NCBI GenBank assembly: GCA_021813405.1
Contig: JAKAKS010000033.1
Span: 12,995 to 44,994 of the forward strand
DNA: 32,000 bases
Direction: 5' to 3'
From: Nitrospirota bacterium
Lineage (GTDB): Bacteria; Nitrospirota; Thermodesulfovibrionia; Thermodesulfovibrionales; JdFR-88
Part shown: positions 1,059-25,787 of the stretch, one piece after another
Position numbering within the stretch: position 1 is the first letter of the stretch
How the letters are laid out: each line of letters begins with the position of its first letter
Notes under the pieces: generated by a model
What the model was told of the DNA's origin: nothing
The model's database searches: none
Seen by the model: only the letters and a program-made list of their open reading frames with translations
Program-made: the position numbers and the translations under genes

Positions 1059-2141
1059 TTATCCGCCTATCGGTTTGTGCTTCATACCCCAGCCAACGGT
1101 AATGCCGCAAAGATTCGGATGGCCCTCGGCCATTTTCACCACTATACCGTTTGCCTGATGGCAGCTTCCGCATGCCGAGATGTCCGCCACTACCTTGTGC
1201 GAATCGGCATTCATCACCATGAGGCGGCTGTCGTCCTGGTACGTCCTGGCCGGAATAAGTACCCATTTGCCGTCCTGGGTGAACGCTACGTCGTGCGGGT
1301 AGCGATGCTCAGGAAGCACGATGTGTTCTACCACCTTATTGGAATCGGTGTCTATGACCACAAGCTGGGATTTGTGGGTGGGCGGCTTGAGCCCCGGGTC
1401 GTACTCGTTTGGGGCTGATACCCACAGCTGGTTAGTGTGCGGTCTCAAATGGATCTGGTGGATGAACGTCATCTGAGGGTCGGTTATCTTTTTTACTACC
1501 TTTTTCGTTGTCCAGTCAAGCACGTAGATTGTGCCCGTGGGCATATCGGCCACATAGGCCACCTTGTTGTTATGGACCCATTGTATGCCGCATACGGCAG
1601 CGCCAACGGGGATATCGTCTACCAGCTTGGCTTTTTTGTAATTCCACTGGTAAATGTGCCCGTCTGCCATGTCCTCCAGGTACAGGCTGTTGTCTGGGCC
1701 TTTCATAACATCGCAGATCTTCTGGCCTATCTGCACCGGCTCGGAGTTCATGCCGGTCTTCAGGTTATGCACAACCATCCTGCCGTCCAATAACCCAACA
1801 TACAGTTTATCCCCTACTATCGCAGAGGCGTGGATGCCGCCGCCCCTCTTGATCTTCTCAAATGACATGCCGGCGATCTTGCCTTCCATCTCGCTGCCGG
1901 AATTTGTTATTGTGATCCTGTCGTTCTGGATGCTCACCGGCGATTTCATAGTGGCAAGGTTGATCATGGCTATGTGCCCGCCTTCACCGGCCACAAAGGC
2001 TATGCCGGTCAGCTTGGGCATATCGGCGGTTACATAGTGGTAGTCTATCCCGGTGTTGGCGGTGTTATCATCGGCGCTTGCCGTATAATAAACAGCCGTC
2101 GTCAACGCCAGCGCGATCACGGCGAGTAAAACCTTCTTCAT
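1059..2141 (-). CDS. Secreted YVTN-type beta-propeller repeat protein with a C-terminal CXXCH motif
   Basis: The 360-aa ORF starts with signal peptide MKKVLLAVIALALTTAVYYTASA. YVTN-like strand signatures recur: LYVGLLDGRMVVHNLKTG, GTIYVLDWTTKKVVKKI, QLVVIDTDSNKVVEHI and RLMVMNADSHKVVADI. The C-terminus reads ISACGSCHQANG, a CXXCH motif. An SD sequence (GGGAGGAAG) precedes the ATG. Confidence 0.8.
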   Translation of the reverse strand: MKKVLLAVIALALTTAVYYTASADDNTANTGIDYHYVTADMPKLTGIAFVAGEGGHIAMINLATMKSPVSIQNDRITITNSGSEMEGKIAGMSFEKIKRGGGIHASAIVGDKLYVGLLDGRMVVHNLKTGMNSEPVQIGQKICDVMKGPDNSLYLEDMADGHIYQWNYKKAKLVDDIPVGAAVCGIQWVHNNKVAYVADMPTGTIYVLDWTTKKVVKKITDPQMTFIHQIHLRPHTNQLWVSAPNEYDPGLKPPTHKSQLVVIDTDSNKVVEHIVLPEHRYPHDVAFTQDGKWVLIPARTYQDDSRLMVMNADSHKVVADISACGSCHQANGIVVKMAEGHPNLCGITVGWGMKHKPIGG

Positions 2142-2369: not shown

Positions 2370-2396
2370 TTCGATTGCGGAAGGTTTTCAGTCCCT

Positions 2397-3473
2397 CATA
2401 GGTTTTATAAACCTGAAATAGACCATCGTCCAGTTGCCAAGCACAATGAAGATAGTGGAGACGATGCTTGATACAGCCAAGGTCGACACACCGGTCAACC
2501 CATGCCCGATGTTTCAGCCGCCTGCTACGGAGGCGCCAAACCCCATGAGGAGGCCGCCTCCGAATACTATTGCCAGGTCCTTTGCCGGCGGGGCGTTCAG
2601 CTTGAATTCCTTGAGGCCTTTCGAGCTGATGTATGCGCCTATCGGGACTGCCAGGATGTATATCGCGCTCCAGGTTGCAGTTATGTTGCCGAACGAGAAC
2701 ATCGGCCATGACGAATGGCTGCTGCCATTTAGCACCGCGTTGGCGAACTCGCCAAGCGGACCGGTAAATGAAATCCCCCTGGGATAACCGCCGAACACGC
2801 CGGAAGCCCACCATCCCGCGGTTGCAACTATGCCTATCAAGACACCGGCTATGGACCATTTATATCCCTTTGCCGGGCCTTTCCGGAAGGGTTTTCCCTT
2901 AAGAACGTAGATGCCCGCAATGACGGCAATTACCCCGATTAATATCCACTTGGTGGTGTCGCCTCCCCCGAAAAGGCCGTATAAGGTCAGCGCATTGCCG
3001 CTTGCGTCGTTCACCGTGTAGTGTTTCATGGCCAGATAGACCGGTTTCAATACCCCGCTGGTTGTCATGATTATCCCCATGGCGAACGCCAGTGTGGCAA
3101 GCAGGGCCGATATCAGCCCTTCGCCCACTCGGTACAGTATGCCGCTGCCGCAGCCGCTGGCAAGGACCATGCCCAGGCCGAATATATATCCGCCCACTAT
3201 GTTTGCCACGGGCGCAAAAGACTGCCTTGCAAGGGTGAAAGGACCATACTGGTCCGACCCGAGCCAGTGCATATCTTCCAGGAAATTTGCCCCTACCATG
3301 GTTATGACCAGCGCAATCAGATAGGCCCTGAAAAGGGTGACATCGTTAATGAAGATGATGTCCCTGAACGCCGTGTTCATGCAAAACCTTCCACGTTGCA
3401 ACGCAAAGCCGATTGCCAGCCCTATCACAATGGCCGAAACAGCTACTGTCCATGTGCCAGGCGAAATGCCCAT
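2397..3473 (-). CDS. yeeE: YeeE/YedE family sulfur (thiosulfate) transport protein, predicted selenoprotein with an in-frame UGA at 2514-2516
   Basis: The family motifs QRGRFCMNTAFRD, GGYIFGLGMVLASGCGSGILYRVGEGLI and LLMGFGASVAGG[TGA]NIGHGLTG are present. The TGA falls where the family has its third invariant Cys. Reading through adds 39 codons (a hydrophobic last TM helix) up to the TGA at 2397-2399. The 358-codon total matches the family length, and AGGAGG precedes the ATG at 3473. Confidence 0.75.
2480..2501 (-). promoter_or_regulatory. Candidate bacterial SECIS hairpin downstream of the in-frame UGA
   Basis: The minus-strand RNA reads UGA, then AACAUCGGGCAU (12 nt), then GGGUUGAC [CGGUGU] GUCGACCU. 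The stem has 8 bp (6 Watson-Crick, 2 G-U) and the 6-nt apical loop contains GGU. Confidence 0.5.
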
Positions 3474-3567: not shown

Positions 3568-4362
3568 TCATTCTCCTATCTTGGGGATTATACCCCGGTC
3601 TATAACAATCCGGTACATGCGTCTGAAGAAAAGGAGTGAAAGCGCAAGGTAAACGGCATTAAGCGCCGTGGCATCCAGAAGCTCACGGGCGGGGAAACTG
3701 GCCCCGTTTATCACTGCCCGCATCCCTTCAAACGCATGTGATGCCGGGATAAACGCGGCAACCGCGCGGAGAAACCCCGGCAGGACAGAGACGGGATAAA
3801 ACACGGCTGAGAATGGCAGAAATACAAACCCGAGCGCCCAGGCCAGGATCTCGGCCTCAAGGCCGTATCTTAGAATAAGGGCGGTCGTAAATATCCCGAT
3901 AGCCCATCCCATTGCGGTGAGATTCAAAACCAGCGGCAGCAGGGAGGCCCCAAGTTTCAGGATGCTGAAGGAATAGAGAGCCCAGCCCAGCACGGACAGC
4001 AGGGCAAACGCTGCGGCCACCTTTATAAAACTCATCACGATCAGGCCAAGGACATATTCGGCCATGGTCACCGGCGTTACGAACACGTTAATCAGGTTCC
4101 TGGACCACATGTCTTCAAGAAAAGAAACCGAGATCCCCTGTTCGGCCCTGAACAGGACATCCCACAATATGAGCGCGCCTATGAAATAGGATACGAACTT
4201 CGGCATGTTCTGGCCGGATGTCCTGCGAAGGTAAACCGTCAGGAACCCCCATAAAAGCAGGTCCATGGTGGGCCAGTATACAACTTCCATAAGCCGTGCC
4301 ATGCTTCTTTTGTAAAGATAAAGCTGTCTGAGCGCAACGGCCGCAACGTGGCTTGCTTTCAT
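3568..4362 (-). CDS. ABC-2 type transporter permease
   Basis: The ORF has six hydrophobic spans and an ABC-2 membrane-domain pattern: MKASHVAAVALRQLYLYKRSMARLMEVVYWP ... FIPASHAFEGMR. I chose the ATG at 4362 because it forms an ATGA overlap with the ATPase stop. The longer track ORF has an implausible G/R-rich N-terminus. Confidence 0.85.
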   Translation of the reverse strand: MKASHVAAVALRQLYLYKRSMARLMEVVYWPTMDLLLWGFLTVYLRRTSGQNMPKFVSYFIGALILWDVLFRAEQGISVSFLEDMWSRNLINVFVTPVTMAEYVLGLIVMSFIKVAAAFALLSVLGWALYSFSILKLGASLLPLVLNLTAMGWAIGIFTTALILRYGLEAEILAWALGFVFLPFSAVFYPVSVLPGFLRAVAAFIPASHAFEGMRAVINGASFPARELLDATALNAVYLALSLLFFRRMYRIVIDRGIIPKIGE

Positions 4363-5090
4363 TCGCCTTCTCCTAGCGCCTTGAAGAAAAGCTCTTCCAG
4401 GTTTTTTGCGCCGTAGCTGCCCAGAAGGTCTGCCGAGCGGCCCTGCATCAGCACCTTTCCCTCCTTCATGAAAAGCACCCTGTCCGATACCTCCTGCATC
4501 TCCCAAAGGTTATGGGACGTATAGATGACGGACATGCCTCTTTCGGAGCAGAGCGATTTCAGCATATGCCGCGTCTTCCTGGCAATCTCCGGGTCCAGCC
4601 CGGCGGTGGGCTCATCCAGAAGCAATATCTCCGGGCTGTTTATCATGGCCTTGGCCAGCGCCAGCCTCATCATCTGGCCCGATGAAAGCGTCCTTGATGG
4701 TTTGTTCTTAAGTTTTTCGAGCCCGAACATGCCAAGCGTCTCATCGCATCTTGCGGCCCTGTCCTTGATCCCGTACATCAGTGCATAGACCATCATGTTT
4801 TCACGCGGCGTAAGTGTTAGTGGCAGCGAGACATAGCTGGAGGCGAAATTCATGCGCCTTAAAATACTTGCCCTTGTTTGCGCGGAAAGCCTTGTGCCGA
4901 ATGCCTCCACCCAGCCTGAAGACGGGGAGATAAGCCCAAGAATAGTGTGGATTAAAGTAGTCTTGCCGGCGCCGTTTGGCCCAAGCACGCCAAGTATCTC
5001 TCCTTTTTCAAGCGCAAGGCTTACGTCTGAAAGGGCGTAAACCCCAGGTTCAAACGATTTCGATATCCCTGTAACCTTTAAAATCTTCAT
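4359..5090 (-). CDS. ABC transporter ATP-binding protein (ABC-2/DrrA-like)
   Basis: Walker A (GPNGAGKTT), signature (LSSGQ) and Walker B (LLLDEPTAGLD) are present, along with an H-loop (SHNL). The start is either the ATG at 5090 (MKILKV) or the GTG at 5105; neither has a clear SD. Confidence 0.9.
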   Translation of the reverse strand: MKILKVTGISKSFEPGVYALSDVSLALEKGEILGVLGPNGAGKTTLIHTILGLISPSSGWVEAFGTRLSAQTRASILRRMNFASSYVSLPLTLTPRENMMVYALMYGIKDRAARCDETLGMFGLEKLKNKPSRTLSSGQMMRLALAKAMINSPEILLLDEPTAGLDPEIARKTRHMLKSLCSERGMSVIYTSHNLWEMQEVSDRVLFMKEGKVLMQGRSADLLGSYGAKNLEELFFKALGEGE

Positions 5091-5222
5091 AAAGCAATCT
5101 ATCACTGCAAACCGGGTGCGGTCAATGGAACTTATTGAAAATTGCCTGCTGCAAACCCGCTTGCGCCCATTTTCATGCTAGAATTTTTCTAATCTGAATG
5201 AACAGCAGGATAAGGAGGCCAC

Positions 5223-6445: not shown

Positions 6446-7156
6446 TTATTTATCCGTGTGGCAATTTCTGCAGATTATGCTCTCGAACAGGGGATTTTTA
6501 TTGCCCGAATTCCTTAGAAATTGAACCCCGCTGCCATAATTGTTTCCGTTGTGCGGGTTGTGGCAAGTGGCGCACTGCAATGTGCCACTGAAAAGGGGAT
6601 AAGTATCTGTGTTGTAGAGTGCGCCTATGAAAAAATTTGCCAAACCGTTGAAGCCGGGTCCGTTGCCAATGTACACCCGATCTCCCGCAGGATCATTACC
6701 GATGGGTATCAGGCTCCTGAACGGCGTGACAATTCCAAGGTTTACAACCTGTCCTACTGAAAAATTAAACGGGTGTTCGTTAAAGTGGCTGGTGATATTA
6801 GGGCCGGTGTCTCCGTCATGGCAGCCCAGGCAATACATTGAGCCCATGGCCGGGTTGGGTGGGTCGTCCGCGGCTTTCTGGCCGGTTGGAATGCCTATGT
6901 TGTTGGCGGGCATGGAATCATAAGAGTAAGAAATATTATAAGTGTAGTTGGATATGCCGTCATCCCAAAGCATATGCTGATTAATTAGGTTGGAGCTGGC
7001 TATGTGCGGGTGATGGCAAAAAACGCACAACTGCCGCGTTTCGGGCAGTTTGCTTATGGAGTTCATATCGTGCTTTGATTGCATCAGGCCCATTGCAAGC
7101 GCATGGTGCACGGCTGCGGCTGCAAGGGCCAGAAACAGGATGAGAATTTTCTTCAT
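6446..7156 (-). CDS. Periplasmic tetraheme c-type cytochrome
   Basis: The signal peptide is MKKILILFLALAAAAVHHALA. Four CXXCH motifs are present: CVFCH, CLGCH, CATCH and CRNCH, two of them in the form CxxCHxPH. I chose the ATG at 7156 (AGGGGA SD) over the track start at 7195. Confidence 0.85.
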   Translation of the reverse strand: MKKILILFLALAAAAVHHALAMGLMQSKHDMNSISKLPETRQLCVFCHHPHIASSNLINQHMLWDDGISNYTYNISYSYDSMPANNIGIPTGQKAADDPPNPAMGSMYCLGCHDGDTGPNITSHFNEHPFNFSVGQVVNLGIVTPFRSLIPIGNDPAGDRVYIGNGPGFNGLANFFIGALYNTDTYPLFSGTLQCATCHNPHNGNNYGSGVQFLRNSGNKNPLFESIICRNCHTDK

Positions 7157-7240
7157 CGGTTTCCCCTGTTTTTGAGGGTCTGAATGCCGTGGCATTTTTA
7201 ACCGTTGTCTTAAGACGGGGAATGGTGCTTGCCTGATTCC

Positions 7241-7268
7241 AGTATAGGATGTAAATTCCGGGTTTCAA
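7241..7268 (-). promoter_or_regulatory. Sigma70-like promoter for the cytochrome gene (TTGAAA-N16-TATACT)
   Basis: The minus strand reads TTGAAAcccggaatttacatccTATACT inside an AT-rich 260-bp spacer after the end of the RND gene. Confidence 0.35.
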
Positions 7269-7453
7269 TAAGTAGTTTTGCGGTTCAATTTTAAAAATTG
7301 CTCATCTGTTTCTTTTTTGGCATTTAAGCATTTGCGGGGGCATGTTTTTTAATATGCGCACCATGAATATTATTTGTTTGTGGAGGAAGGTGGCAGCGCT
7401 TGTTTCCGATACGGTTATAAAAGGATTGCGCCAGTTGCAGGCTTATAGTTTTT

Positions 7454-10400
7454 TCACTTTCCCTTTACCCTGAATGTATAAAAAATCACAGGCAGTACGA
7501 ACAGCACCAGCGGAAACTGGACCACCAGCCCGGAGATTATGGCTATTGCCAGGGGTTTCAGCATCGCGGCCCCCTGGCCGATGCCGGTTGCAAGCGGCAT
7601 TAAGGCCAGGATGGCGGCAAAAGTAGTCATGGCGATGGGCCGCATCCTGTTTTTCCCCGCGGTTATGAAGGCCTCTTTTCTGTTCATCCCTGCGGGCATT
7701 TCGTAATATTCAGACACGTAAAATATGGCTACCTCGGTTGCTATGCCGATAATCATCGTCATCCCCATCATGGCGGAGATATTTAATTCCGTGCCTGTGA
7801 TAAAAAGGCCCGCAAACACTCCCATGACGGCCAGAAGGCTGGTGATAAGTATTGCCCCGGCAACCAGAAAGCTCTCGTACAGATAAAGAAGCAGCAGGAA
7901 GATTAGCGCAACGGCGGCGGCAAACACGGCCATGAGCCCGGCAAAGGCTATCTTCTGCTGTTTGTAGAGCCCGCCAAGGCTGTAGTAAACCCCGGCAGGG
8001 AAAAGCCCCGGCCGCGCAAGCGCCTTCTTTACGTCACGGATAACAGAGCCCATGTCCCTGCCGGTTATGCGTCCGGTAACGGCGGCCATTCTTTTTAGGT
8101 TGTCCCGTGTAATCTCGGGCTGCCCGCTTATGGCAGTTAATGTGGCAATCCTGCCAAGCGGGAACAGGTGGCCGTCAGGGGCGCGCAACTGCAACTGGGC
8201 AAGCTGCCCGACGGTTGCCCTGTATTTTCCTGGAATCCAGACTCTTACGCCAACCATCTTGGGTTCCTTCTCAACCTGCGTGGTGACAATGCCGCTTAAC
8301 ATCGCGTCCAGGTCCTTTGTGACGGAATCCGGGTCCACCCCTTCCAGGGCGGCTTTCACCCTGTCCACCTTTATATCCAGGGCATCACCGGCAAGTACTA
8401 TGCCGGGGTCCACATCCACCACGCCGGGTATCTTGCTTATCATGTCCGCTATTTTAGGGGCAAGAGTATCCAGCACCTTCCCGTTATCCGAATAGATTTT
8501 TATCTCGATTGGCTGGGGGACGCCGGTAAAATCCCCTATCATGTCTTCAAGGAGCTGGGCCATTTCAATATGCAGGCCCGGTACGGATTTTTCCACGCGC
8601 TTGCGGATGTCATTCATAACCTCGCCAATTGGCTTTCTGGGGAAGGGCTTCAGGCGTATGAAGAAATCGCCCTGGTATGCCTCCGTAACACCGCCGCCAA
8701 GCTGAAGCCCGGTGCGCCTGGAATAGGTCTGCACTTCAGGTGTTGTACGGAGGATGTCTTCCACTTGTCTTAGCAGGCGGTCCGTCTCGGCCAGTGATGT
8801 GCCCGGCTCCGCCAGATAGTCCAGGATGAATCCCCCTTCGTCCATCCTGGGCATGAACCCGGAGCCAAGGTGCTTGTAGCACAGCCATCCACCGATAAGA
8901 AGTGCGGCCACAGGTATCAATACCAGCATGGGGCGGCCAAGCAGGCGGGACATGGTATTTTCGTATTTTTTGTGCGCCTTTTCCGTTACAAAACCGCCTT
9001 CCTTCTGGTCCGCATCCTTTTCACTTAGCAGATGGTCCGCAAGCAGCGGGACGGCAAGCCATGCTACAAAATATGAGATAAAAAGGCTGGCCGCCATTGT
9101 CAGGGAAAGCGCCTTGAAAAAAGCGCCGGTAACGCCGGAGAGGAAAGCCAGCGGCGTGAATATTACTATTGTGGACGCGGAGGACCCCATCAGAGGCCTT
9201 GTAAACTCCCTTGCCGCAAACATGATTTTTTCATGGTGTTCGCCGGGCGCCATACTGCCGCCGCCGCGGAGCCGCCGCACGATGTGTTCCAGCATAACGA
9301 TAGTGTCATCAATTATCAGGCCCACGGCTGCGGCCATGCCGCCAAGCGTCATCATGTTGAAGCTCTGGTGCATTATGTACAAAAGCAGCACCGAGGCCGC
9401 AAGCACCCCCGGCACAGTGATAATGGCTATAAGTGTTATCTTTACGTTCTTAAGGAAGATAAAAAGTATAACGGCCGCAAGCGCAACGCCTATCAGTATG
9501 GCGTCCCTTACACTGCCGGCCGAGGCGTTTATCAGCTGGCTCTGGTCGTACCAGTTTGCTATCTTTACCCCCGCTGGTATCTGGTTTTTAAACCCGGCCA
9601 GTTTCGCTTTCAGGTCTTTTGCTATGCGCACGGTATTTCCGCCGCGCTGCTGGTAAACATTCAGCAGCACGGCGTCGTGGCCGTCCGCTGTTACCCTTGT
9701 CCATTGCGGCACCGTTGCGCGGCTTACGGCGGCCACGTCTTCCAGCAGTACCGGCCCGTTTGCCCCGGAGCGCAAAACCGTGCTGCGGATTTCATCAAGT
9801 CCGGTAAAGCTGGTGTCGGACATTACAAGATAAAGCTTGTAATGGTCCTCCAGGCGGCCCACCGCGGTTATGACGTTTGCTGCAGAGAGGGATTTGGCCA
9901 CGTCCGAAAGCGTAAGTCCGTAAGAGGCAAGTTTTGCCGGGTCCACCGTCACCCGGTATTCCTCGGTGGTGCCGCCCTGTACCTGCACCCTTGCCACGCC
10001 GTTTACCGTGGAAAGAAGCGGGCGGAGCTGATAGAAGGCGAAATCGTGCAACGCGGTAAGGGAAAGATTGTCCGATGTCAGGCTGTAGGCCAGCACCGGG
10101 TCGATTGTGGGGTCCATGCGTTTTACCGAAAAGGTGGTACTCGAAGGCATGGATGGCATCACCTGGTTTATCGCCGATTCCACCTGAAGCAGCGATTCCG
10201 CCATATTCCGGCCCCATCCGAAATCCACCCTCACTTCCGCGCTGCCGCGGCTTGTGGTGGAACGGACGCTTACAACCCCTGGAACAGCCCTTACCGCCTG
10301 CTCCACGGGCAATGTGACCTCGATTGCCATCCGGGTGGCGGGGCGGTCCCCGGCATCCAGCTCGACGGCAATCCTTGGGAAGCTAACGTTTGGAAGCAGG

Positions 10401-10504
10401 GCAACCGGCAGCTTCACACTGCTTGCGATGCCTCCAAGCATCAGCACGGCCAGCAAAAAGAGTATTGAACGGCGGTGGTACTGAACCCATCCGGTGAAAG
10501 TCAT
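7454..10504 (-). CDS. RND efflux transporter permease subunit (AcrB/CzcA superfamily)
   Basis: The ORF is 1016 aa with a 12-TM, two-large-loop architecture. The TM4 motif is GLIIDDTIVMLEH. Its ATG forms an ATGA overlap with the adaptor gene stop at 10501-10504. Confidence 0.95.
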   Translation of the reverse strand: MTFTGWVQYHRRSILFLLAVLMLGGIASSVKLPVALLPNVSFPRIAVELDAGDRPATRMAIEVTLPVEQAVRAVPGVVSVRSTTSRGSAEVRVDFGWGRNMAESLLQVESAINQVMPSMPSSTTFSVKRMDPTIDPVLAYSLTSDNLSLTALHDFAFYQLRPLLSTVNGVARVQVQGGTTEEYRVTVDPAKLASYGLTLSDVAKSLSAANVITAVGRLEDHYKLYLVMSDTSFTGLDEIRSTVLRSGANGPVLLEDVAAVSRATVPQWTRVTADGHDAVLLNVYQQRGGNTVRIAKDLKAKLAGFKNQIPAGVKIANWYDQSQLINASAGSVRDAILIGVALAAVILFIFLKNVKITLIAIITVPGVLAASVLLLYIMHQSFNMMTLGGMAAAVGLIIDDTIVMLEHIVRRLRGGGSMAPGEHHEKIMFAAREFTRPLMGSSASTIVIFTPLAFLSGVTGAFFKALSLTMAASLFISYFVAWLAVPLLADHLLSEKDADQKEGGFVTEKAHKKYENTMSRLLGRPMLVLIPVAALLIGGWLCYKHLGSGFMPRMDEGGFILDYLAEPGTSLAETDRLLRQVEDILRTTPEVQTYSRRTGLQLGGGVTEAYQGDFFIRLKPFPRKPIGEVMNDIRKRVEKSVPGLHIEMAQLLEDMIGDFTGVPQPIEIKIYSDNGKVLDTLAPKIADMISKIPGVVDVDPGIVLAGDALDIKVDRVKAALEGVDPDSVTKDLDAMLSGIVTTQVEKEPKMVGVRVWIPGKYRATVGQLAQLQLRAPDGHLFPLGRIATLTAISGQPEITRDNLKRMAAVTGRITGRDMGSVIRDVKKALARPGLFPAGVYYSLGGLYKQQKIAFAGLMAVFAAAVALIFLLLLYLYESFLVAGAILITSLLAVMGVFAGLFITGTELNISAMMGMTMIIGIATEVAIFYVSEYYEMPAGMNRKEAFITAGKNRMRPIAMTTFAAILALMPLATGIGQGAAMLKPLAIAIISGLVVQFPLVLFVLPVIFYTFRVKGK

Positions 10505-11604
10505 TTTGTATGCGGCACCTTTACGGCCATCCCGTCTTTAAGTTCGTAGTTGCCAACTACCACAACCTCATCACCCGGTTTCAGGCCCCCGCCGGATACC
10601 AGCGCCAGATTGCCGCTTTCAATGCCTCTTTGAACTATGTGCTTGACAGCTTTTCCATCGCTTACTGTATAAAGCACGTATTTCCCGCCCTCCGGCAGCA
10701 CTGCGCTCCTGGGCACAACCATCCCGTAAGAGGAGGCCATCTGTATCTTGCCCATGACATATTCGCCAAGAAGAAACCCTGCGGATTGCCCGGCCCCTGC
10801 GGAAGGCAACGCAACAAAAACATCCACAAGGCGCGTGGCGGAGTTCACCGCGCGGGAAATCTTCCTTACCCGGCCTGTTATTCCGGTTGGCAGCTGCTGG
10901 TTTACCGGCGAAAGCAGTACGGGCTGCCCTTGAACCAGCCGTCCGGCGGCGTTAGGCTCCATCCCAAGGCGTACCTCCAGGCGGTTTTGAGCTATTGTGC
11001 CAACCAGCGGCTTGCCGTCGGCAACTATAGCGCCGTCCTGAACGTTTACATAGCTTACCAGGCCGCCGGCATCTGCCCGTATTACCCGCATGCCGTCCAC
11101 GCCCATCTTTTGGAAGTTTTTCAGTTGCAATGATGCCTTCCTGAAGTCCTCCTGCGCCTTAAGCATCTGGGTGTTGGTTGCAAGCTTAAGATCGAACAGC
11201 TGCTTTACATGCGCCAGGTTCTGTTTTGAAATATCATAGGAGTTTTCCGCCTGGCCCAGTTGAAGAAGAGTATCGGGGCTGGGTTCCACCTGAATAAGCG
11301 GCTCGCCCCTGGCCACCTTCTGCCCGGCGCTCACCATTACCTGCCCCACCCTTATCTCATATGGCACGGAGGCAACCTGCACCGCGTCCGGCGCGGGGAC
11401 AACTTCGCCAAATGCCGTACCGGCGGCTGAAATCCTCTGCGTTTTTACCGGGGCAACTTCAACGCTTGCCACCGGGCCGCCCGCCTCCGGCGCCGGGCTG
11501 TCCGCGCTTGCCTTTTGCCCCCTGCCTTCAATAAGCTTGTAGCCGCCAAAAGCAAGGCAAACGGCAAAAACCGTAATAAGGACGCCCCTCCAGGGGAATT
11601 TCAT
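10501..11604 (-). CDS. RND efflux periplasmic adaptor (membrane fusion protein, HlyD-like)
   Basis: There is an N-terminal anchor (MKFPWRGVLITVFAVCLAFGG), a coiled-coil segment (LQLGQAENSYDISKQNLAHVKQLFDLKLATNTQMLKAQEDFRKASLQLKNFQ) and beta-barrel C-terminal domains. AGGAGG lies 9 nt before the ATG at 11604. Confidence 0.9.
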   Translation of the reverse strand: MKFPWRGVLITVFAVCLAFGGYKLIEGRGQKASADSPAPEAGGPVASVEVAPVKTQRISAAGTAFGEVVPAPDAVQVASVPYEIRVGQVMVSAGQKVARGEPLIQVEPSPDTLLQLGQAENSYDISKQNLAHVKQLFDLKLATNTQMLKAQEDFRKASLQLKNFQKMGVDGMRVIRADAGGLVSYVNVQDGAIVADGKPLVGTIAQNRLEVRLGMEPNAAGRLVQGQPVLLSPVNQQLPTGITGRVRKISRAVNSATRLVDVFVALPSAGAGQSAGFLLGEYVMGKIQMASSYGMVVPRSAVLPEGGKYVLYTVSDGKAVKHIVQRGIESGNLALVSGGGLKPGDEVVVVGNYELKDGMAVKVPHTK

Positions 11605-11617
11605 CAGCGCATACCTC

Positions 11618-12985
11618 CTATTGCAAATACTCTCCGGCGCTGATCTCCAGCGCCACATGCAGTTCCGCCAGCGTCAGCCTGAGCTTCAGCGCGTCCAGCC
11701 TCCTGGTGGCCAGCCTGTTTACCTCGTTGTAATAACTGAGAGCGTCTATGTTGCCCTCAAGAAAACCGTTATACGACACGGATACAAGCTTCCCCAGCGC
11801 CGCCACGGACTTGCCGGCCGCGCTTATCTGGGCCTTAACCGCTTTAATGTTTGCCAGTATGGCCGCTGCATCCGCCCGCGCCTGGAATATCCTGTTCATA
11901 TATTCGTCATACAGCATTTGCCTTGTGGCTTTCTCTATGGCTATATGGCCCTGGTTACGATCGAAAAAAGGCAGTTTAATGGACAAGGAAAAGCCCGTTG
12001 ATATAACGTTGGTATTGTCCCTGGCATGGGAGAACCCGATGCCTATGCTTGGGAACTGTGCGCGCACGGCCTCCCTTAACGCTGCATCCTGGCTCTGGTA
12101 ACCCTGTTTCAAGGCAAGCAGGTCCAGCCTCCTGTTTTCAATCCCTTTCATTATGCCGTTCAGCGAAGGAAGGGTTTTCAAGGCCGGAAACGCCATGTTC
12201 TTTTTCAGCGGGATATAACTTTTGGGGGGAAACCCAAGCACAAGGTTAAGCCTTAGCCGTTCCTGTTCCAGTTTCTGGCTGGTGCTGAGGGCTGTGGAAT
12301 GCGCGCTTCTAAGCGTTGATTCCACCGCATCCAGATCAACAATCGTCATATTGCCTTCGTCAACTGCTTTTTTTATGGCTTGCAGGTTCTGAAGCAGAGT
12401 GTTCTCCTCATTTTTCGCAATCTTCAGCTGCTGCTCCAGCATCATTACCCGATAAACTTCCAGCCTTGCGGACTGGGCCACCTGCCATTCCTGCCAGACT
12501 ATATCAAGGCTGACGGATTCCTTATTGGCCTGCGCCGCGTCAATTTTTGGCCCGCGTGTAAGCAGGGATTTTATGATGCTCCAGTCCAGCCCCAGCCCGT
12601 AGGCGTTCACTGTGCCCTGGTCGCTGCCGCCGCTAGGCACATCCAGGCTGTAACTGAATGCCGGGTTGGGAAGGATGCCAGCCTGCAAAAGCTGGGCATT
12701 GGCAATACCAAGCCGGTCCCTTTCGGCGCGAAGCTGCGGATTTGCGATAACGGCTATAATTGCCGCGTCCTGGGCGGAGATGCCTTTTGCAAAATCTATA
12801 TTTCGCGGCTTGAGGACGGGATGCTTTATCTGCCTGGCCTTTATCCGCAATGATTGAATATCAGGGGCCGCAAGCCTGCCGGAGATGGCCTGCCGGTTAA
12901 TGGGCTTCGGCTGATATATTGCGCAGCCGCAAAGCATGGCAAGCGGCACTATGCATAACAGCTTTTTTATCATGGGAGATCGCAT
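11618..12985 (-). CDS. Outer-membrane efflux protein (TolC/OprM family lipoprotein)
   Basis: A lipobox is present (LAMLCGC), and the two-repeat OEP helical pattern runs throughout. The gene order OMF-MFP-RND is as in czcCBA. The start is the ATG at 12985 or at 12973. Confidence 0.9.
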   Translation of the reverse strand: MRSPMIKKLLCIVPLAMLCGCAIYQPKPINRQAISGRLAAPDIQSLRIKARQIKHPVLKPRNIDFAKGISAQDAAIIAVIANPQLRAERDRLGIANAQLLQAGILPNPAFSYSLDVPSGGSDQGTVNAYGLGLDWSIIKSLLTRGPKIDAAQANKESVSLDIVWQEWQVAQSARLEVYRVMMLEQQLKIAKNEENTLLQNLQAIKKAVDEGNMTIVDLDAVESTLRSAHSTALSTSQKLEQERLRLNLVLGFPPKSYIPLKKNMAFPALKTLPSLNGIMKGIENRRLDLLALKQGYQSQDAALREAVRAQFPSIGIGFSHARDNTNVISTGFSLSIKLPFFDRNQGHIAIEKATRQMLYDEYMNRIFQARADAAAILANIKAVKAQISAAGKSVAALGKLVSVSYNGFLEGNIDALSYYNEVNRLATRRLDALKLRLTLAELHVALEISAGEYLQ

Positions 12986-13095
12986 TTAAAAAATCTTAAA
13001 CAATGGGCATCTTGTTGTCCATGCCTGCCCGCCTCAAATTTTATTGCAATTTTTTTAATATAAGTTCCGGGAATTGCATGGACATTGCGCAAACA

Positions 13096-14526
13096 TTACA
13101 AATCTGCAATGTTGTCCGTTTTGGGATTGGCCGGAATGTAGACAGTAAAAACGGAACCTTCGCCCGGCGCGCTGGAGACCTCCACGCGTCCTTTGTGCGC
13201 CAGAATGATTGCCTTTACAAGGCTCAGGCCAAGCCCAAGCCCCCTTTGTGAGCGGCTTTTGTCCCCGCGGTACAGCCGGTCCCATATTTTCGGGAGTTCC
13301 TGCTGCTGAATGCCGGCGCCTGTATCTGTTATTTGGATAACGGCGCTTTGATTTTCCCTGGATGTTTGGATTTCCACGGACCCTCCGCAATCCGTGTACT
13401 TGACTGCATTGTCCAGCAGGTTAGCGATGGCCTGCTGAATCCTGTTTTTATCCGCAAGCACTTGCATATTTCCCGTGAATGAGGCGCGGATGGCCACATT
13501 CTTTTCTTCCGCCACATAGCTGTAAAGGTCTGTCACCTCATTTATCAGGGCCGACAAGTCCACATCCTGCAAATTAAGCAGCATTGCGCCTGTTTCAGCC
13601 TCCGAGATGTCCATCACAGTGTTAAGCATTGTCAGTATGCGGTCCGCCTCCTCTATGCTGTCGGCCAGCGCGCTTTTCAGCGTGTCCGGGCTGGCTTCAG
13701 AGCGAAGCGCCATCTCAGCGCCGGCGCGAATTCTTGTGATTGGGGTGCGCAGGTCATGGGCCACATTGTCCAGGCCCTCCCTCATACCTTTTATAAGCTT
13801 TTCGATTTTTTCCAGCATGGTGTTAAAAAGCCTGCTTAGTTCCTGAAGCTCATCCTTGCTATCTCCCACAGGCACCCTGGCGTTTATCTCCCCAGTGCCG
13901 ATTATCTGGCGCGTTGCGTTTATCAGGTAGCGTATGGGCCTGAGGGCCCGGAACGTAAGCAGCATCCCCCCGGCAAAACCGGTTATGAATACAGGAATCA
14001 GTATTTTCAGGAATATCGCGCGGAACCGTGCGATCAACTCCTGGCTGTTAACAGTAAGTTTGCCAACCTGCAGGATTAAACCCGGTGTGATGGGTTTTGA
14101 CAATATCTCATACGTGTTCTTCACGCCATTTGAAGAAATAGAAGACCATGGCCCCTTGTTTTCCGTTTGGCCGGTGTCCAGCCGCTCTAAATCCGGCGCC
14201 GGCCATTGCCGGGGGATGGACAGAAAAACCGTCCCCTTTTTCGCATCCGTGAGGCGGACAAAAAAAAGGTCCTGGCCGGTCGAGTCCTTGAACCTTATTT
14301 CGGACAGGGCGCGCTCCAGCCTGCTGCTTCCTCCCATGCGGAAATCGGCTACGTAATCTTCCATTTCGGACTGGATGAGCTTGCGGTCGTTCTGCCTGAA
14401 GGAGAATTTAAGGGAAAAGAATGTAACAAAGAACAAAATCAGGGAACTGGCAATAAATATGGCCGAGTACCAGAAGGCCAGCTGAAAGCCTATTGTTCTG
14501 CTGGATGCCCTAAGCCCTGAAAGCAT
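13096..14526 (-). CDS. Sensor histidine kinase (two TM helices, HAMP, HisKA, HATPase)
   Basis: The H-box is HDLRTPITRIRAG, the N-box is NLLDNAVKYT, G1 is DTGAGI and G2 is GLGLGLSLV. The ORF overlaps the response-regulator gene by 17 nt. Confidence 0.9.
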   Translation of the reverse strand: MLSGLRASSRTIGFQLAFWYSAIFIASSLILFFVTFFSLKFSFRQNDRKLIQSEMEDYVADFRMGGSSRLERALSEIRFKDSTGQDLFFVRLTDAKKGTVFLSIPRQWPAPDLERLDTGQTENKGPWSSISSNGVKNTYEILSKPITPGLILQVGKLTVNSQELIARFRAIFLKILIPVFITGFAGGMLLTFRALRPIRYLINATRQIIGTGEINARVPVGDSKDELQELSRLFNTMLEKIEKLIKGMREGLDNVAHDLRTPITRIRAGAEMALRSEASPDTLKSALADSIEEADRILTMLNTVMDISEAETGAMLLNLQDVDLSALINEVTDLYSYVAEEKNVAIRASFTGNMQVLADKNRIQQAIANLLDNAVKYTDCGGSVEIQTSRENQSAVIQITDTGAGIQQQELPKIWDRLYRGDKSRSQRGLGLGLSLVKAIILAHKGRVEVSSAPGEGSVFTVYIPANPKTDNIADL

Positions 14527-15181
14527 AACCGATCCCCCTCATCGTCTGGATCAGCTTCTGGTCAAAATCCTTTTCGATCTTGTTTCTCAGCCGGCAAACC
14601 AGCACGTCCACCACATTGGTCTGCGGATCAAAATTATATCCCCATATATGCTCAAGTATCATGGCCTTTGAAACCACCTTGCCCGCATTGCGTAAAAAGT
14701 ATTCAAGGAGGGCAAATTCCCGATACTGCAAATCGATTTTTTTGCCGCCCCTGAATACCTCGCGCGTGAGGAGGTCTATCGAAATGTCCTGGGCGGCCAG
14801 GCGGGTGGTTTCGGCCATGCCTGATGATCTTCGGATCAGCGCCTGCAAACGCGCCAGGAGTTCGGAGAAGGAGAACGGTTTTGTAAGGTAATCGTCGCCG
14901 CCTGCGCGCAGCCCGCGCACCCTGTCGTCCACGGAATGCCTTGCGCTGAGGATTATCACCGGGGTGTTGATCTTCTGGCGGCGAATCTCTTCGATCACAG
15001 CCAGCCCGTCCAGCCGCGGCAGCATGATATCAACTATGGCTGAATCATAAACCCCCGTCTGCAATGCGCGCAGGCCGTCCTCTCCGTTGTCCTCACAATC
15101 CACCGCAAAGCCGGCCTGCTTCATTCCGCTGGATATGAAAGAGGCTATTTTTTTGTCATCCTCTATGATCAGAATGCGCAT
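14510..15181 (-). CDS. OmpR/PhoB-family response regulator (CusR/CopR-like winged helix)
   Basis: The receiver domain reads MRILIIEDD ... VDIMLPRLDG. The wHTH segment ILEHIWGYNFDPQTNVVDVLVCRLRNKIE resembles the heavy-metal response-regulator subfamily. Confidence 0.95.
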   Translation of the reverse strand: MRILIIEDDKKIASFISSGMKQAGFAVDCEDNGEDGLRALQTGVYDSAIVDIMLPRLDGLAVIEEIRRQKINTPVIILSARHSVDDRVRGLRAGGDDYLTKPFSFSELLARLQALIRRSSGMAETTRLAAQDISIDLLTREVFRGGKKIDLQYREFALLEYFLRNAGKVVSKAMILEHIWGYNFDPQTNVVDVLVCRLRNKIEKDFDQKLIQTMRGIGYAFRA

Positions 15182-19173: not shown

Positions 19174-20250
19174 ATGGATTACTCTTTGACGACCGCCAGG
19201 CACTTCACCAGGGGCCGGATAACCGGCGTTAAACCGTTTGGCAGCGGCAATATAAACAGCACCTTTCTGGTTGAATCTGAAGACGGGGGGAAATTTGTCC
19301 TCCAGCGCATCAATACCCGTGTTTTCCATAGGCCTGAGGATGTTATGCGCAACATGCGCGTGTGCACGGAACATATGATAGGAAAAAACAATTCCACGTC
19401 CAGCCGCCTTGAGGTGCCGGGCGTTGTCCTGGCCACGGACGGGCTGGATTATTGGGTTGACGATGAGGGCGGGTTCTGGCGCGCCCTCACCATGATCGAG
19501 GGTGCACAATCTTTCAACATAGTCCAGAACGAAACCCATGCAAGGCAGGCCGGTTATGCGCTTGGCCTTTTCCACCAGCTTTTAAGCGATCTGCCCCCCG
19601 GCAAACTTGCCGATACGCTGCCAGGCTTTCATATCACGCCAGGATATCTGGCGCATTACGGTGGGGCGCTGGCAATTTATAAAGGGGCCGTGCCGCCTGA
19701 GGCGGCCTGGTGCATGGATTTTATAGCGGCACGCAAAGGGCTGGCATACATGCTTGAAAACGCAAAAGGGCAGGGCAGGCTGCCAGTGCGCGTGATGCAT
19801 GGCGATCCAAAGATAAATAATATCCTTGTAAACCCGCAGACGTTCAGGGCCGTAAGCGTTATAGACCTGGACACGGTAAAGCCCGGTCTTGTCCATTACG
19901 ACATAGGCGATTGCCTGCGCTCCGGGTGCAACCCGCTTGGCGAGGAGACCGCAGATGTGGATTCCGTTTATTTTCATACCGGGTATTGCCGCGCCATACT
20001 TGAAGGCTATCTTGAGGCGGGCAGGGAATTTCTCACCGCCGGCGATTTTGAATTCATATATCCCTGTGTCCGCCTGATAGCGTTTGAGCTTGGGTTGCGG
20101 TTTTTCACGGATTACCTGGAGGGTAATGTCTATTTTAGGGCTAATTCACCCGGGCACAATTTAAAAAGGGCCCTTGTGCAGTTCAGGCTTACTGAGAGCA
20201 TTGAGCATCAGGAGGCGGACATAAGGCAGATAGTGCGGGAGGGCGCGTGA
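19174..20250 (+). CDS. APH-fold phosphotransferase, NahK-like (sugar-1-kinase type)
   Basis: The nucleotide loop is FGSGNINSTFLV. The catalytic region is HGDPKINNILV ... VIDLDTVKPGLVHYDIGDCLRS. The specific substrate cannot be read from the sequence. Confidence 0.75.
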   Translation: MDYSLTTARHFTRGRITGVKPFGSGNINSTFLVESEDGGKFVLQRINTRVFHRPEDVMRNMRVCTEHMIGKNNSTSSRLEVPGVVLATDGLDYWVDDEGGFWRALTMIEGAQSFNIVQNETHARQAGYALGLFHQLLSDLPPGKLADTLPGFHITPGYLAHYGGALAIYKGAVPPEAAWCMDFIAARKGLAYMLENAKGQGRLPVRVMHGDPKINNILVNPQTFRAVSVIDLDTVKPGLVHYDIGDCLRSGCNPLGEETADVDSVYFHTGYCRAILEGYLEAGREFLTAGDFEFIYPCVRLIAFELGLRFFTDYLEGNVYFRANSPGHNLKRALVQFRLTESIEHQEADIRQIVREGA

Positions 20251-20783
20251 CTTCCGTAGAGTTTGCCCTGCTGCCTTTTCCCGGTGAAATTTTTCCGGAA
20301 ATAAAGATTTCCGGGAGCGCTGGGAGGGAAGGCAACGTGTTCTCAATCCATTACAACATTACCGGTGATCTGCCGCGGATAGTGCTGCCAGCGGCGGGGA
20401 CGGCGCCGGAGCGTGTGGACGGACTTTGGGAAGCAACCTGCATGGAGTTTTTTCTTTCTCCGCGCGGCCGCGTGGATTACTGGGAGTTCAATCTCTCGCC
20501 ATCGGGGGACTGGAACGTTTACAGGCTGGACTCTTACAGGGAGGGGTTCCGGCGGGAACCGTCAATAGAGCGGCTCCCGTTTAAGTTTCATCGCGGGCCG
20601 GACGCGCTTGGGTTATCGCTGGAATGCGACCTGGCCCGGGTAATTAATCCGGATATCAAAATCGAGGCCGCAATAACCGCCGTAATAAAAACCGCGGACG
20701 GAAAATTGAGCTACTGGGCTTTAAAGCATCCAGCAGGCAAACCCGACTTCCATCACAGGGAAAGTTTTGTGATCGAACTTTGA
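20247..20783 (+). CDS. Hypothetical soluble protein, possibly a DOMON/CBM9-like beta-sandwich (family assignment from memory only)
   Basis: The GTG start overlaps the kinase stop (GTGA at 20247-20250). Codon usage looks coherent. The motif is LWEATCMEFFLSPRGRVDYWEFNLSPSGDWNVY. Confidence 0.6.
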   Translation: MTSVEFALLPFPGEIFPEIKISGSAGREGNVFSIHYNITGDLPRIVLPAAGTAPERVDGLWEATCMEFFLSPRGRVDYWEFNLSPSGDWNVYRLDSYREGFRREPSIERLPFKFHRGPDALGLSLECDLARVINPDIKIEAAITAVIKTADGKLSYWALKHPAGKPDFHHRESFVIEL

Positions 20784-23580: not shown

Positions 23581-23696
23581 GGACAGGCTCTATCAAGCAA
23601 GGACTGCGGCATTACCTCTTTGAAATATATGGCAGTGGGACGTTGCACACCCGTTTTTGAGGCGTAGTGGAAATTTTGAAAAATGGAGGTCTGAAA

Positions 23697-25787
23697 ATGA
23701 AAGGAAAGCTTGGGAGGTTTTTTGCAGCCGGGGCGTTGTGTGTATTTGCAGTGTTATTTTTTGGGGGCTGCGGAGGGGGAGGCAGCAGTTCGCCATCCGG
23801 CTCGTCTGGCGCCCCTGTAAGCGGGTTTGTAGCCGATGGCGCTGTGGCAAACGCAACGGTAACGGCATATACCGACTCTGGGCTTACAAACCAGATTGGC
23901 TCCGGCTCCTCGGATTCAACCGGAAAATTTTCTTTTAGCCTTACTGTAACTCCGGTGCCTTCGCCTTTTTACCTGAAGTCCACCGGCGGCATAGATTTGA
24001 GCACGGGCCTGCCCGCGCCGACGATGGTGTTTGCAGGCATTACAAACGGGGCCGGCATCAATATCACCCCGCTTACGGACACGGTTTACCAGTTAAGCCT
24101 CTCCGTTGGGCTTGCTAATGCGATAACAAGCGTTGAGGGCCAGCTTGGGGTAACAAACGCTGATATTTACAGCGGAATTTCCAATTCAGCCACTGCCGCT
24201 GCTGTAAACAAGGTGGCGGATTCCGGCTCGATGGCGGCCACGCTTCCGGACGGGGCATATTATATGACCTTAATCCATGCAGGGAGCAACGAAATCCAGA
24301 ATCCAAAACACACCTTCGGCAGCATAGCGGATATCCTTACCAACAGCACGGAAGCGCTCAACATAACAGTTTCCAGCGGAGCGGTAAGCGGCACAATGTC
24401 TGATGCAAGCAATGGTACGTGTACCGTTTCAGGAAGGGTAAGCGGCGATGCAGTGGTCCTTCAAACGGCACCATGCAGCATCACTGGCAAGACCATGAGC
24501 GCAGGCGGGACCATAGGCCGGCTTGGCGGCATCACCGGCACATTTTTAGTTAATGCGCCGGGTTCAGGCCATCCCCTCAGGGCGGGCGTATTCGCCGCGT
24601 CGGCTATTCCTCAGAACGTAAACGCATCCACCTTCGCAAATGCTGTAGGCGCATCGTATACTGGACCGTTTAATTTCCTGGCCAGGGGCCTCTTTGGAGC
24701 CGGGCACAATCTGATCTGGGGCCAGGAGCCGCAGCAGCCCATACCCAGCACCATGGGCGGTACGTTTACCCCAAGTAACATCTCGGTAGCCATGGACAAC
24801 GGCTCCGGCATCAACCCAACCACAGACACCCTAGCATCCGCATCCGGGTTCGGCAGTATGGTTTCCAGCAAAGGATTGCCTACCGCGCTGGCGGTAATGC
24901 AATATACCGACATAAGCGGAGAAAACATTTTCATAGTACAGGCCGCGGGAAGCAGGGGCGGCATCTGGGTGACAGCCAATCCTGCCAACTCCAATGAGGC
25001 GGACGGAATAGGCGACTTATCCGTTACAAAGCCTGGCAGCGTAGATTCTCTTTCAGACAGCTCATATAACATCTATGTTGCATCAGTTGACCCCGGTGAA
25101 CTTGGGCAATCAAGGAGCTCCGTATTAGGCGGCATGCCGGTTTCCCCGGGAACCGCTGACTTCAGCGTTTGCAGCGGCAACACCGGGTTATGCACAAGTC
25201 TTTCCGGCTTTGGTGTAGGCAACAGCCCCGAACTGGGTGTATTTGCCGGTGACGTACTTGGGATGAAGAAGGACGACGATGACGTATGGGATGGCGCCGA
25301 GCAGGACGGATCGAACGAACATATAAGGCTGGTGCATTTCTTCGGCAGTGGCGCGTTCTCTGGCGGGGAGGAGCAGCCGGTAAACGTACCCATGATGAAT
25401 GGCGGCGGTAGCGGCATTGGGAATTTCCCGTCAGCCTTCGTGGGAATGGCCGTGCCCACATCCGGCAGCGCGCCCTCTTTCAGCGGCACGCTGAGCTTCC
25501 TGGCCAGGAATCTCTATACCACTGACGGCAACTACAATTTCAATTGGGGCTCCATAACCATCTCCGGAACCAGCGGCTCAATTACTTATGCGGGCTCCGA
25601 TGGAGGAAGCGGCACCGCCTCATTGTCAGTCTTGAATACAAACGGCGTTTACCATCTGTCCTTCCCGAGTAGCGGTGGCGGCTACATAGATGTTTTCTGG
25701 CCCGTCGGCGGCCGGAAGGCCATTTACTTCTCGTCAGACAGTAATGGAAGCATAAATGAAATAGGCGAGGCGTATATGACCCAGTAG
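23697..25787 (+). CDS. Large secreted lipoprotein of unknown function (G/S/T/A-rich)
   Basis: GGAGG lies 8 nt before the ATG at 23697. The signal and lipobox-like sequence is MKGKLGRFFAAGALCVFAVLFFGGCGGGGSSS. An N-terminal segment (VSGFVADGAVANATVTAYTDSG ... STGKFSFSL) resembles a carboxypeptidase-regulatory-like fold. The rest has no motif I recognise. Confidence 0.85.
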   Translation: MKGKLGRFFAAGALCVFAVLFFGGCGGGGSSSPSGSSGAPVSGFVADGAVANATVTAYTDSGLTNQIGSGSSDSTGKFSFSLTVTPVPSPFYLKSTGGIDLSTGLPAPTMVFAGITNGAGINITPLTDTVYQLSLSVGLANAITSVEGQLGVTNADIYSGISNSATAAAVNKVADSGSMAATLPDGAYYMTLIHAGSNEIQNPKHTFGSIADILTNSTEALNITVSSGAVSGTMSDASNGTCTVSGRVSGDAVVLQTAPCSITGKTMSAGGTIGRLGGITGTFLVNAPGSGHPLRAGVFAASAIPQNVNASTFANAVGASYTGPFNFLARGLFGAGHNLIWGQEPQQPIPSTMGGTFTPSNISVAMDNGSGINPTTDTLASASGFGSMVSSKGLPTALAVMQYTDISGENIFIVQAAGSRGGIWVTANPANSNEADGIGDLSVTKPGSVDSLSDSSYNIYVASVDPGELGQSRSSVLGGMPVSPGTADFSVCSGNTGLCTSLSGFGVGNSPELGVFAGDVLGMKKDDDDVWDGAEQDGSNEHIRLVHFFGSGAFSGGEEQPVNVPMMNGGGSGIGNFPSAFVGMAVPTSGSAPSFSGTLSFLARNLYTTDGNYNFNWGSITISGTSGSITYAGSDGGSGTASLSVLNTNGVYHLSFPSSGGGYIDVFWPVGGRKAIYFSSDSNGSINEIGEAYMTQ

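Follow-up and report, generated by a model that had tools for sequence, protein, structure and literature searches.

The stretch of DNA analysed here, 32,000 nucleotides (nt) in length and called the window throughout, belongs to a Nitrospirota bacterium (GenBank assembly GCA_021813405.1, contig JAKAKS010000033.1, positions 12,995 to 44,994 of the forward strand). On its minus strand, at 2388..3473, lies a gene of 361 codons for a YeeE/TsuA-like (Sulf_transp, PF04143) membrane protein. One of these codons is an in-frame UGA, and it is followed by a stem-loop which very probably acts as a bacterial selenocysteine insertion sequence (SECIS). The open reading frame (ORF) begins with an ATG at 3473 and meets a first TGA at 2516-2514, past which 42 further open codons lead to a second TGA at 2390-2388, the true stop. 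TGA was the ordinary stop of 11 of the 23 probable genes of the window, the end of the YeeE gene itself included, and the organism has therefore not reassigned this codon. For the protein searches Cys was put at the first TGA, which gave a translation of 361 residues. The match to PF04143 covered residues 27-349, running across the UGA, with an E value of 8.4e-67 and a score of 226.3 bits for a gathering cut-off of 27.

The protein could be aligned end to end with S. thermophila YeeE (TsuA; PDB 6LEO) over residues 14-357 (E = 2.9e-42), and each of the three conserved Cys motifs had its counterpart. Two of the conserved cysteines were specified by ordinary Cys codons in the window gene (RGRF-C-MNT and SG-C-GSG). 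The UGA at 2516-2514 aligned with the Cys of the motif AGG-C-NIGH, which is C293 of the S. thermophila protein (StYeeE), and the window protein would differ from the latter by a selenocysteine (Sec) at this place. C293 is situated in the indentation of the periplasmic side, makes contact with the bound thiosulfate and is irreplaceable (PMC7449682). Against the two NCBIfam TsuA equivalogs the window protein remained under the curated cut-offs (229.6 vs 400 for NF052577 and 144.2 vs 645 for NF041049), so that it is a relative of TsuA and not a certified equivalog. No YeeD/TusA-like partner gene adjoining the YeeE gene was seen in the window.

The region downstream of the UGA is described with the U of the UGA as position 1 of the mRNA, so that position p corresponds to the window coordinate 2517 - p on the minus strand. 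The predicted Sec codon (2516-2514) is followed by the spacer AACAUCGGGCAU, 12 nt long, which encodes Asn-Ile-Gly-His (2513-2502, mRNA 4-15). The 5' arm of the stem, GGGUUGAC, occupies 2501-2494 (mRNA 16-23), the apical loop CGGUGU 2493-2488 (mRNA 24-29) and the 3' arm, GUCGACCU, 2487-2480 (mRNA 30-37). Two of the eight pairs of the stem are G-U wobbles (G16-U37 and U20-G33). The UGA, the 12-nt spacer, the 8-bp stem and the 6-nt loop had been reported in the preliminary description, which proved right to the base: when a 42-nt piece was folded with RNAfold, exactly this hairpin was obtained, at -14.7 kcal/mol. The stem-loop itself had an energy of -10.3 kcal/mol within 60 nt of mRNA and of -9.8 kcal/mol as an isolated 22-nt hairpin. 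The same description held that the hairpin is not a terminator and that the real one lies 110 nt further on. Both statements agree with the sequence, in which no T run follows the hairpin and the frame goes on. The terminator-like hairpin with its T run is found at 2366-2350 on the minus strand, downstream of the true stop and 114 nt past the stem; it does not belong to the recoding signal.

The bacterial SECIS (bSECIS) consensus of Zhang and Gladyshev, as summarised in the legend of Fig. 2A of PMC13188914, comprises a stem of 4-16 bp closed by a loop of 3-9 nt with at least one G among its first two nucleotides (most often as N1-G-[G|U]-N-N2), a distance of 16-37 nt from the UGA to the loop, and a free energy not above -7.5 kcal/mol. 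The window hairpin agreed with this summary on all four points and presented no structural difference from it. The loop has 6 nt and the stem 8 bp. In the loop, C-G-G-U-G-U, the G at position 2 is followed by another G (G25 and G26), a GG found in 21 of 21 Sec sequences, and C24 and G28 are able to pair, in line with the N1-G-[G|U]-N-N2 pattern. The UGA and the loop were 20 nt apart (mRNA 4-23), in the window as in all the orthologues, and the energy was the -10.3 kcal/mol given above. A peculiarity of the window loop is that its GG is additionally fixed by a conserved Thr-Gly. The hairpin also agreed with a broader account in which the stem has 6-8 bp and a conserved G of the loop lies some 20 nt past the UGA (PMC4605307).

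The preliminary description had likened the element to the SECIS of E. coli fdhF, and this likeness stood at the level of the general model and failed in the detailed architecture. A stem-loop placed after a spacer of about 11-12 nt and a GGU in the apical loop are shared with the elements of E. coli fdhF and fdnG, and SelB would presumably be tethered in the same manner. The loop region of fdhF reads C-AGGUCU-G, and those variants of the YeeE hairpin that possess an ACA codon read C-AGGUGU-G. The fdhF element contains a bulged U in the upper stem, which is a SelB determinant, and its UGA is separated from the minimal hairpin by 11 nt exactly, whereas the window stem is a perfect 8 bp without a bulge and the spacer has 12 nt. 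Also unlike fdhF, the YeeE hairpin has no conserved lower stem including the UGA, and the third base of the loop GGN varies among the YeeE orthologues (U, C, G or A).

The conservation of the hairpin was investigated in 160 related loci (DNA) taken from genome and metagenome collections and designated by L numbers. Those with names were nearly all metagenome-assembled genomes of Nitrospirota (Nitrospirae, Thermodesulfovibrionales/-ia, Dissulfurispiraceae, Thermodesulfovibrio or similar), and L001 shared 98% identity with the gene of the window. In the column of C293, TGA was present in 23 loci in addition to the window, and TGC or TGT in 121 loci; the frame continued beyond the TGA for 42 conserved codons. 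The 24 TGA sources, all Nitrospirota and for the most part metagenome-assembled genomes of the Thermodesulfovibrionia type, reduced to 21 distinct sequences (the Sec forms), which were compared with 108 distinct homologues having a Cys codon (the Cys forms). The alignment of the 21 Sec forms was gapless, with an invariant spacer length and the helix in the same register in all of them (positions 16/17-24 with 29-37, without indels).

At the reported register, 88.9% of the cells formed a standard pair in the Sec forms and 40.6% in the Cys forms. When the 3' partners were shifted by 1-3 columns, these values were 31-44% and 27-43%, respectively, and pairing of the Cys forms at the reported register was no better than in the shifted registers or in shuffles. 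The observed pairing was matched by none of 500 shuffles for the Sec forms and by 444 of 500 for the Cys forms. In a first set of 16 distinct Sec sequences the mean number of in-register pairs was 7.5 out of 8, as compared to 3.3 in the Cys forms (maximum 6), and the hairpin energies ranged from -10.4 to -13.0 kcal/mol. The covariation score of the Sec helix was reached by 0 of 500 shuffles. Compensatory changes, which the preliminary description had proposed to look for in the orthologues together with structural conservation, were present at three covarying pairs and in nine cells: 17:36 and 18:35 both changed from G-C to C-G, and 19:34 from U-A to C-G. These changes also alter the encoded peptide, from GLTGVSTL to SLTGMSAL or ALTGVSAL. 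RNAalifold, to which no structure was supplied, predicted the same helix in the Sec alignment.

The helix is not explained by the peptide, as Cys forms that encode the identical GLTGVSTL made only 2-6 pairs (two in L008, four in L093, five in L071 and six in L084). The probability of the core helix in the structural ensemble of the free mRNA was 0.56 for the Sec forms vs 0.01 for the Cys forms, and it rose to 0.87 vs an unchanged 0.01 when nucleotides 1-13 were blocked. Synonymous codon identity was 0.67 in the hairpin codons of the Sec forms and 0.30 in those of the Cys forms, for flanking values of 0.43-0.49 and 0.38-0.44, respectively; it was also raised, to 0.78, at the spacer codons +1 and +2 of the Sec forms. 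The loop was more variable, with the versions GGUG, GGUA, GGCG, GGAG and CGGGGU among the Sec orthologues, and those with ACA at codon +7 had a 4-nt loop on a 9-bp stem. The helix is thus kept, with covariation, in the orthologues possessing the UGA and is dispensable in the Cys orthologues. A family covariance model built from the 21 sequences gave 57-77 bits to the 24 TGA sites out of 24 and 44.6 bits to the best Cys homologue, with no second site in the window; as the model was made from the very sequences that were scored, this is a consistency check only.

In a neighbour-joining tree of the proteins, which is quick and crude and gives no direction of change, the TGA forms made up no fewer than four clades, with Cys forms between them. 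The window belonged to a clade with L001-L009. L082/L083 were sister to L008 (Cys), L051/L095/L123/L150 to L086 (Cys) and L060/62/64/65 to L074 (Cys); L070 stood alone. The Cys sisters (L008, L074, L086 and L053/57/58) were devoid of the helix, with 2-4 of the 8 pairs. The helix has tracked the UGA through several switches between Sec and Cys.

We propose that the hairpin at 2480-2501 is a bacterial SECIS serving the UGA at 2516-2514, a reading to which we would give, from sequence comparison, a probability of roughly 0.88. Those checks suggested in the preliminary description that could be made by computation all favoured it. In this model, for which we infer the binding of SelB, the geometry on the ribosome and the identity of the inserted residue, the ribosome would take the UGA into its A site with the first 11-13 or so downstream nucleotides in the mRNA channel, which would block a competing helix described below. 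The 8-bp stem-loop, which begins at the 13th nucleotide past the UGA, would then be placed at the entrance of the channel. The C-terminal winged-helix domains of a SelB loaded with Sec-tRNA(Sec) and GTP would bind its G-rich apical loop, and the tethered complex would beat release factor 2, with insertion of selenocysteine. Translation would go on for 42 codons to the second UGA, which has no such hairpin, and would terminate there. The product would be a full-length YeeE/TsuA-type transporter in which the substrate-contacting cysteine of the periplasmic side (C293 in S. thermophila YeeE) is a selenocysteine.

Several observations weigh against this proposal. The GG of the loop corresponds to the glycine codon of the conserved Thr-Gly and is equally invariant in the Cys homologues, so it does not constitute independent evidence for a SECIS. 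No variation occurs at three of the nine pairs, and only a few clades are represented among the 21 Sec sequences, which implies few independent events. The stability of the hairpin was barely above that of shuffled sequences (z = -1.5 for 42 nt, with 14 of 200 shuffles as stable), and the fold of 81 nt gave z = -0.38. The helix mentioned above as a competitor, here called helix A, was the minimum-free-energy fold of the free 60-nt mRNA in the window, L002-L005 and L007, and for the window the reported hairpin then had a probability of about 18%. Using the Rfam gathering thresholds over the whole window, no match was found at the hairpin. Finally, no selA, selB, selD or tRNA-Sec gene was detected within the 32 kb, either by ARAGORN or by a Pfam scan of 20 ORFs of the window.

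Two of these objections can be put into perspective. Around the site, an Rfam search with E values up to 10 produced nothing overlapping 2480-2516, the sub-threshold matches being all on the terminator region (2300-2414). To our knowledge Rfam contains no general model for bacterial SECIS elements, and this null result therefore says little. As for the folding of the single sequence, hairpins with at least 8 perfect pairs satisfying the bSECIS rules were searched for on both strands of the window. There were 58 of them, or 0.09% of the window positions, and the chance of finding one at an allowed spacing after any given codon was about 2%. Among the 33 TGAs of the window preceded by at least 80 open codons and followed by at least 15, the UGA at 2516-2514 was the only one with such a hairpin. 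Folding statistics on a lone sequence are too weak to decide, and the statistical weight comes from the comparative data.

The tRNA that reads the UGA is the point at which the best of the alternatives enters. ARAGORN found no tRNA of any kind in the window, and thus no selC* gene. Such genes, which encode tRNA(Cys) species resembling tRNA(Sec), have been reported in Thermodesulfovibrio and in probable Nitrospirae contigs, and a selC* with a UCA anticodon from a deltaproteobacterium read UGA as Cys in E. coli (PMC5389517). Their presence in the lineage opens a minor possibility that Cys is conditionally inserted at such codons. The hairpin, of SECIS form, would then serve partly or conditionally for Cys insertion by a selC* tRNA(Cys), through SelB or a SelB paralogue, and the UGA would be a facultative Sec/Cys codon. 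Cys homologues are common, so either residue would be functional at the site. The genomes bearing selC*, including Thermodesulfovibrio, were also reported to contain a complete selA/B/C/D set (PMC5389517), so that the lineage decodes Sec, a point in favour of the SECIS proposed above. On the other hand, the combination of an opal-anticodon selC* with CysRS* and SelB* was described for Desulfobacterales, not for Nitrospirae (PMC5389517). The upkeep of a costly UGA and of its hairpin in place of a Cys codon argues for Sec as the selected product. We regard this facultative decoding as improbable, although it is the alternative that survives best.

Helix A involves the positions 5-14 and 20-29 of the mRNA (window 2488-2512, minus strand), in which ACAUCGG.CA pairs with UG.CCGGUGU around a loop UGGGU, and it takes up nucleotides of both the 5' arm and the loop of the SECIS hairpin. 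It is a perfect 10 bp in L002-L005 and L007. One could imagine that helix A is the functional element, or that a switch between the two helices tunes the recoding, and in addition to being the favoured fold of the free mRNA it was paired in 82.4% of the cells in the Sec forms. The value in the Cys homologues was 63.7%, which indicates that helix A is largely a by-product of the conserved peptide. A single compensatory cell was seen, the covariation was not above that of shuffles, and three Sec groups (L051, L082 and L070) lacked the helix, which was rejected as a Sec-specific element. In addition, about 11 nt downstream are occluded by the ribosome (PMC4513850), so that the 5' arm of helix A would sit inside the ribosome when the UGA is in the A site. 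With nucleotides 1-13 blocked, a constraint that mimics this situation, the probability of the reported hairpin reached about 100%; such blocking by the ribosome would depend on the geometry that we assume. A role of helix A, alone or in a switch, seems to us very unlikely. Another candidate, a small helix with the UGA in it (columns 4-9 against 14-19 of the alignment), was also discarded, as no compensatory change was present and the columns were as conserved in the Cys forms.

That the hairpin might be a functionless product of chance or codon choice, the UGA being read through in some other way or acting as a genuine stop in a truncated or split gene, would suit the weak single-sequence statistics and the database gene calls that stop at the UGA, but is strongly disfavoured by the Cys homologues with the same peptide and no helix, by the compensatory changes which preserve the helix at the price of an amino-acid change, by the conservation in frame of the 42 codons past the UGA in 23 loci, which represent no fewer than four clades, and by the loss of the last transmembrane segment and of the essential Cys site that a truncated protein would suffer (6LEO alignment; PMC7449682).

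We return to the proposed SECIS and to the place of its Sec codon in the YeeE family. A selenoprotein of the YeeE/YedE thiosulfate-transporter family is already catalogued (PF04143, motif GUxSG, example WP_012471001.1; PMC13188914, PMC9312934). It shares with the window protein the Pfam family and the replacement of one conserved pathway cysteine by Sec. By its motif, GUxSG matches the context of the second conserved Cys, which is GCGSG in the window and is equivalent to C91. This codon was a Cys codon in the window and in all 160 loci, with no TGA at that site, whereas the Sec codon of the window gene takes the place of the third conserved Cys (GG-U-NIGH, equivalent to C293), outside GUxSG. 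No mention of a Sec form of the C293 type was found in the literature; the two reviews give only the GUxSG entry, and YeeE is not mentioned in the main text of the primary papers that they cite. Sec at the C293 equivalent is therefore an uncatalogued site, served by a recoding mechanism which is itself textbook.

The protein search returned many full-length Cys homologues of about 360 aa together with 12 clusters of 318-349 aa ending in ...GG at the UGA column (P0001, P0002, P0006-P0009, P0011, P0033, P0041, P0058, P0073 and P0092). Where names were given to the latter, they were "YeeE/YedE family protein" or "hypothetical protein". The public gene calls ending at the UGA thus systematically mis-annotate a predicted selenoprotein. 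No fewer than 12 clusters in the databases are truncated, and the true products would be about 42 residues longer and contain selenocysteine.

A second in-frame TGA was observed in one Sec clade of the Dissulfurispiraceae type, at the first conserved Cys (QRGRY-*-MNTAFRD, equivalent to C22), the frame being conserved on both sides. It is located at 3088-3090 in L051 and in L095, at 3064-3066 in L123 and at 479-481 in L150. A search for a SECIS after this TGA yielded only a weak hairpin (AGAGA/UCUUU with the loop CGUGA, from +24) of -2.4 to -3.6 kcal/mol, short of the energy of -7.5 kcal/mol in the bSECIS summary and indistinguishable from the background of the Cys forms.

The genes surrounding the YeeE gene can be described briefly. 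Downstream, the gene at 1059-2141 (minus strand) encodes 360 aa with an N-terminal signal-like segment and a C-terminal CGSCH motif (CXXCH, haem c), and its product showed weak beta-propeller and cytochrome-d1-like matches. It neighbours the Sec-type YeeE gene in L001-L007 and L070, and only three Cys loci have it. Directly upstream, at 3568-5105 (minus strand), there is an ATP-binding cassette (ABC) ATPase gene with an ABC-2 permease gene, an order that is kept in L001-L007. With the TTG at 4506 that is listed as its start, the permease ORF shares 148 nt with the ATPase gene, and the real start is probably further in. A small multihaem-like protein with weak paired-CXXCH/cytochrome c7 matches is encoded at 6446-7195 (minus strand), and the segment 7454-15181 contains a resistance-nodulation-division (RND) efflux operon (AcrB-like, HlyD-like and OEP proteins) and a two-component system. 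The genes from 6446 to 15181 are an ordinary context with nothing related to selenium. Two other ORFs of the plus strand, 20247-20783 (178 aa) and 23667-25787 (706 aa), gave no Pfam match at E <= 0.001.

The interleaving of Sec and Cys forms around a near-constant peptide offers a clean natural case of selection at the RNA level over a coding sequence, and the set would be useful for testing SECIS predictors. Switching between Sec and Cys may be easy in this family because the conserved Thr-Gly codons already set a GG at the right position of the loop. With the GG preset, few stem-forming substitutions would create or destroy a SECIS. A Sec at the C293 position, which contacts thiosulfate, may do chemistry in place of passive binding. 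It is possible, and we put this forward only tentatively, that the hairpin marks an uncatalogued class of YeeE proteins with Sec at the C293 equivalent, and in L051/L095/L123/L150 also at the C22 equivalent of the cytoplasmic side, the Sec state having been gained or lost at least four times. If true, this class would provide a natural series for the study of how a SECIS originates inside a coding sequence, and would suggest that the cysteines of the pathway perform covalent or redox chemistry on the substrate, through an S-Se bond, beyond a relay of hydrogen bonds.

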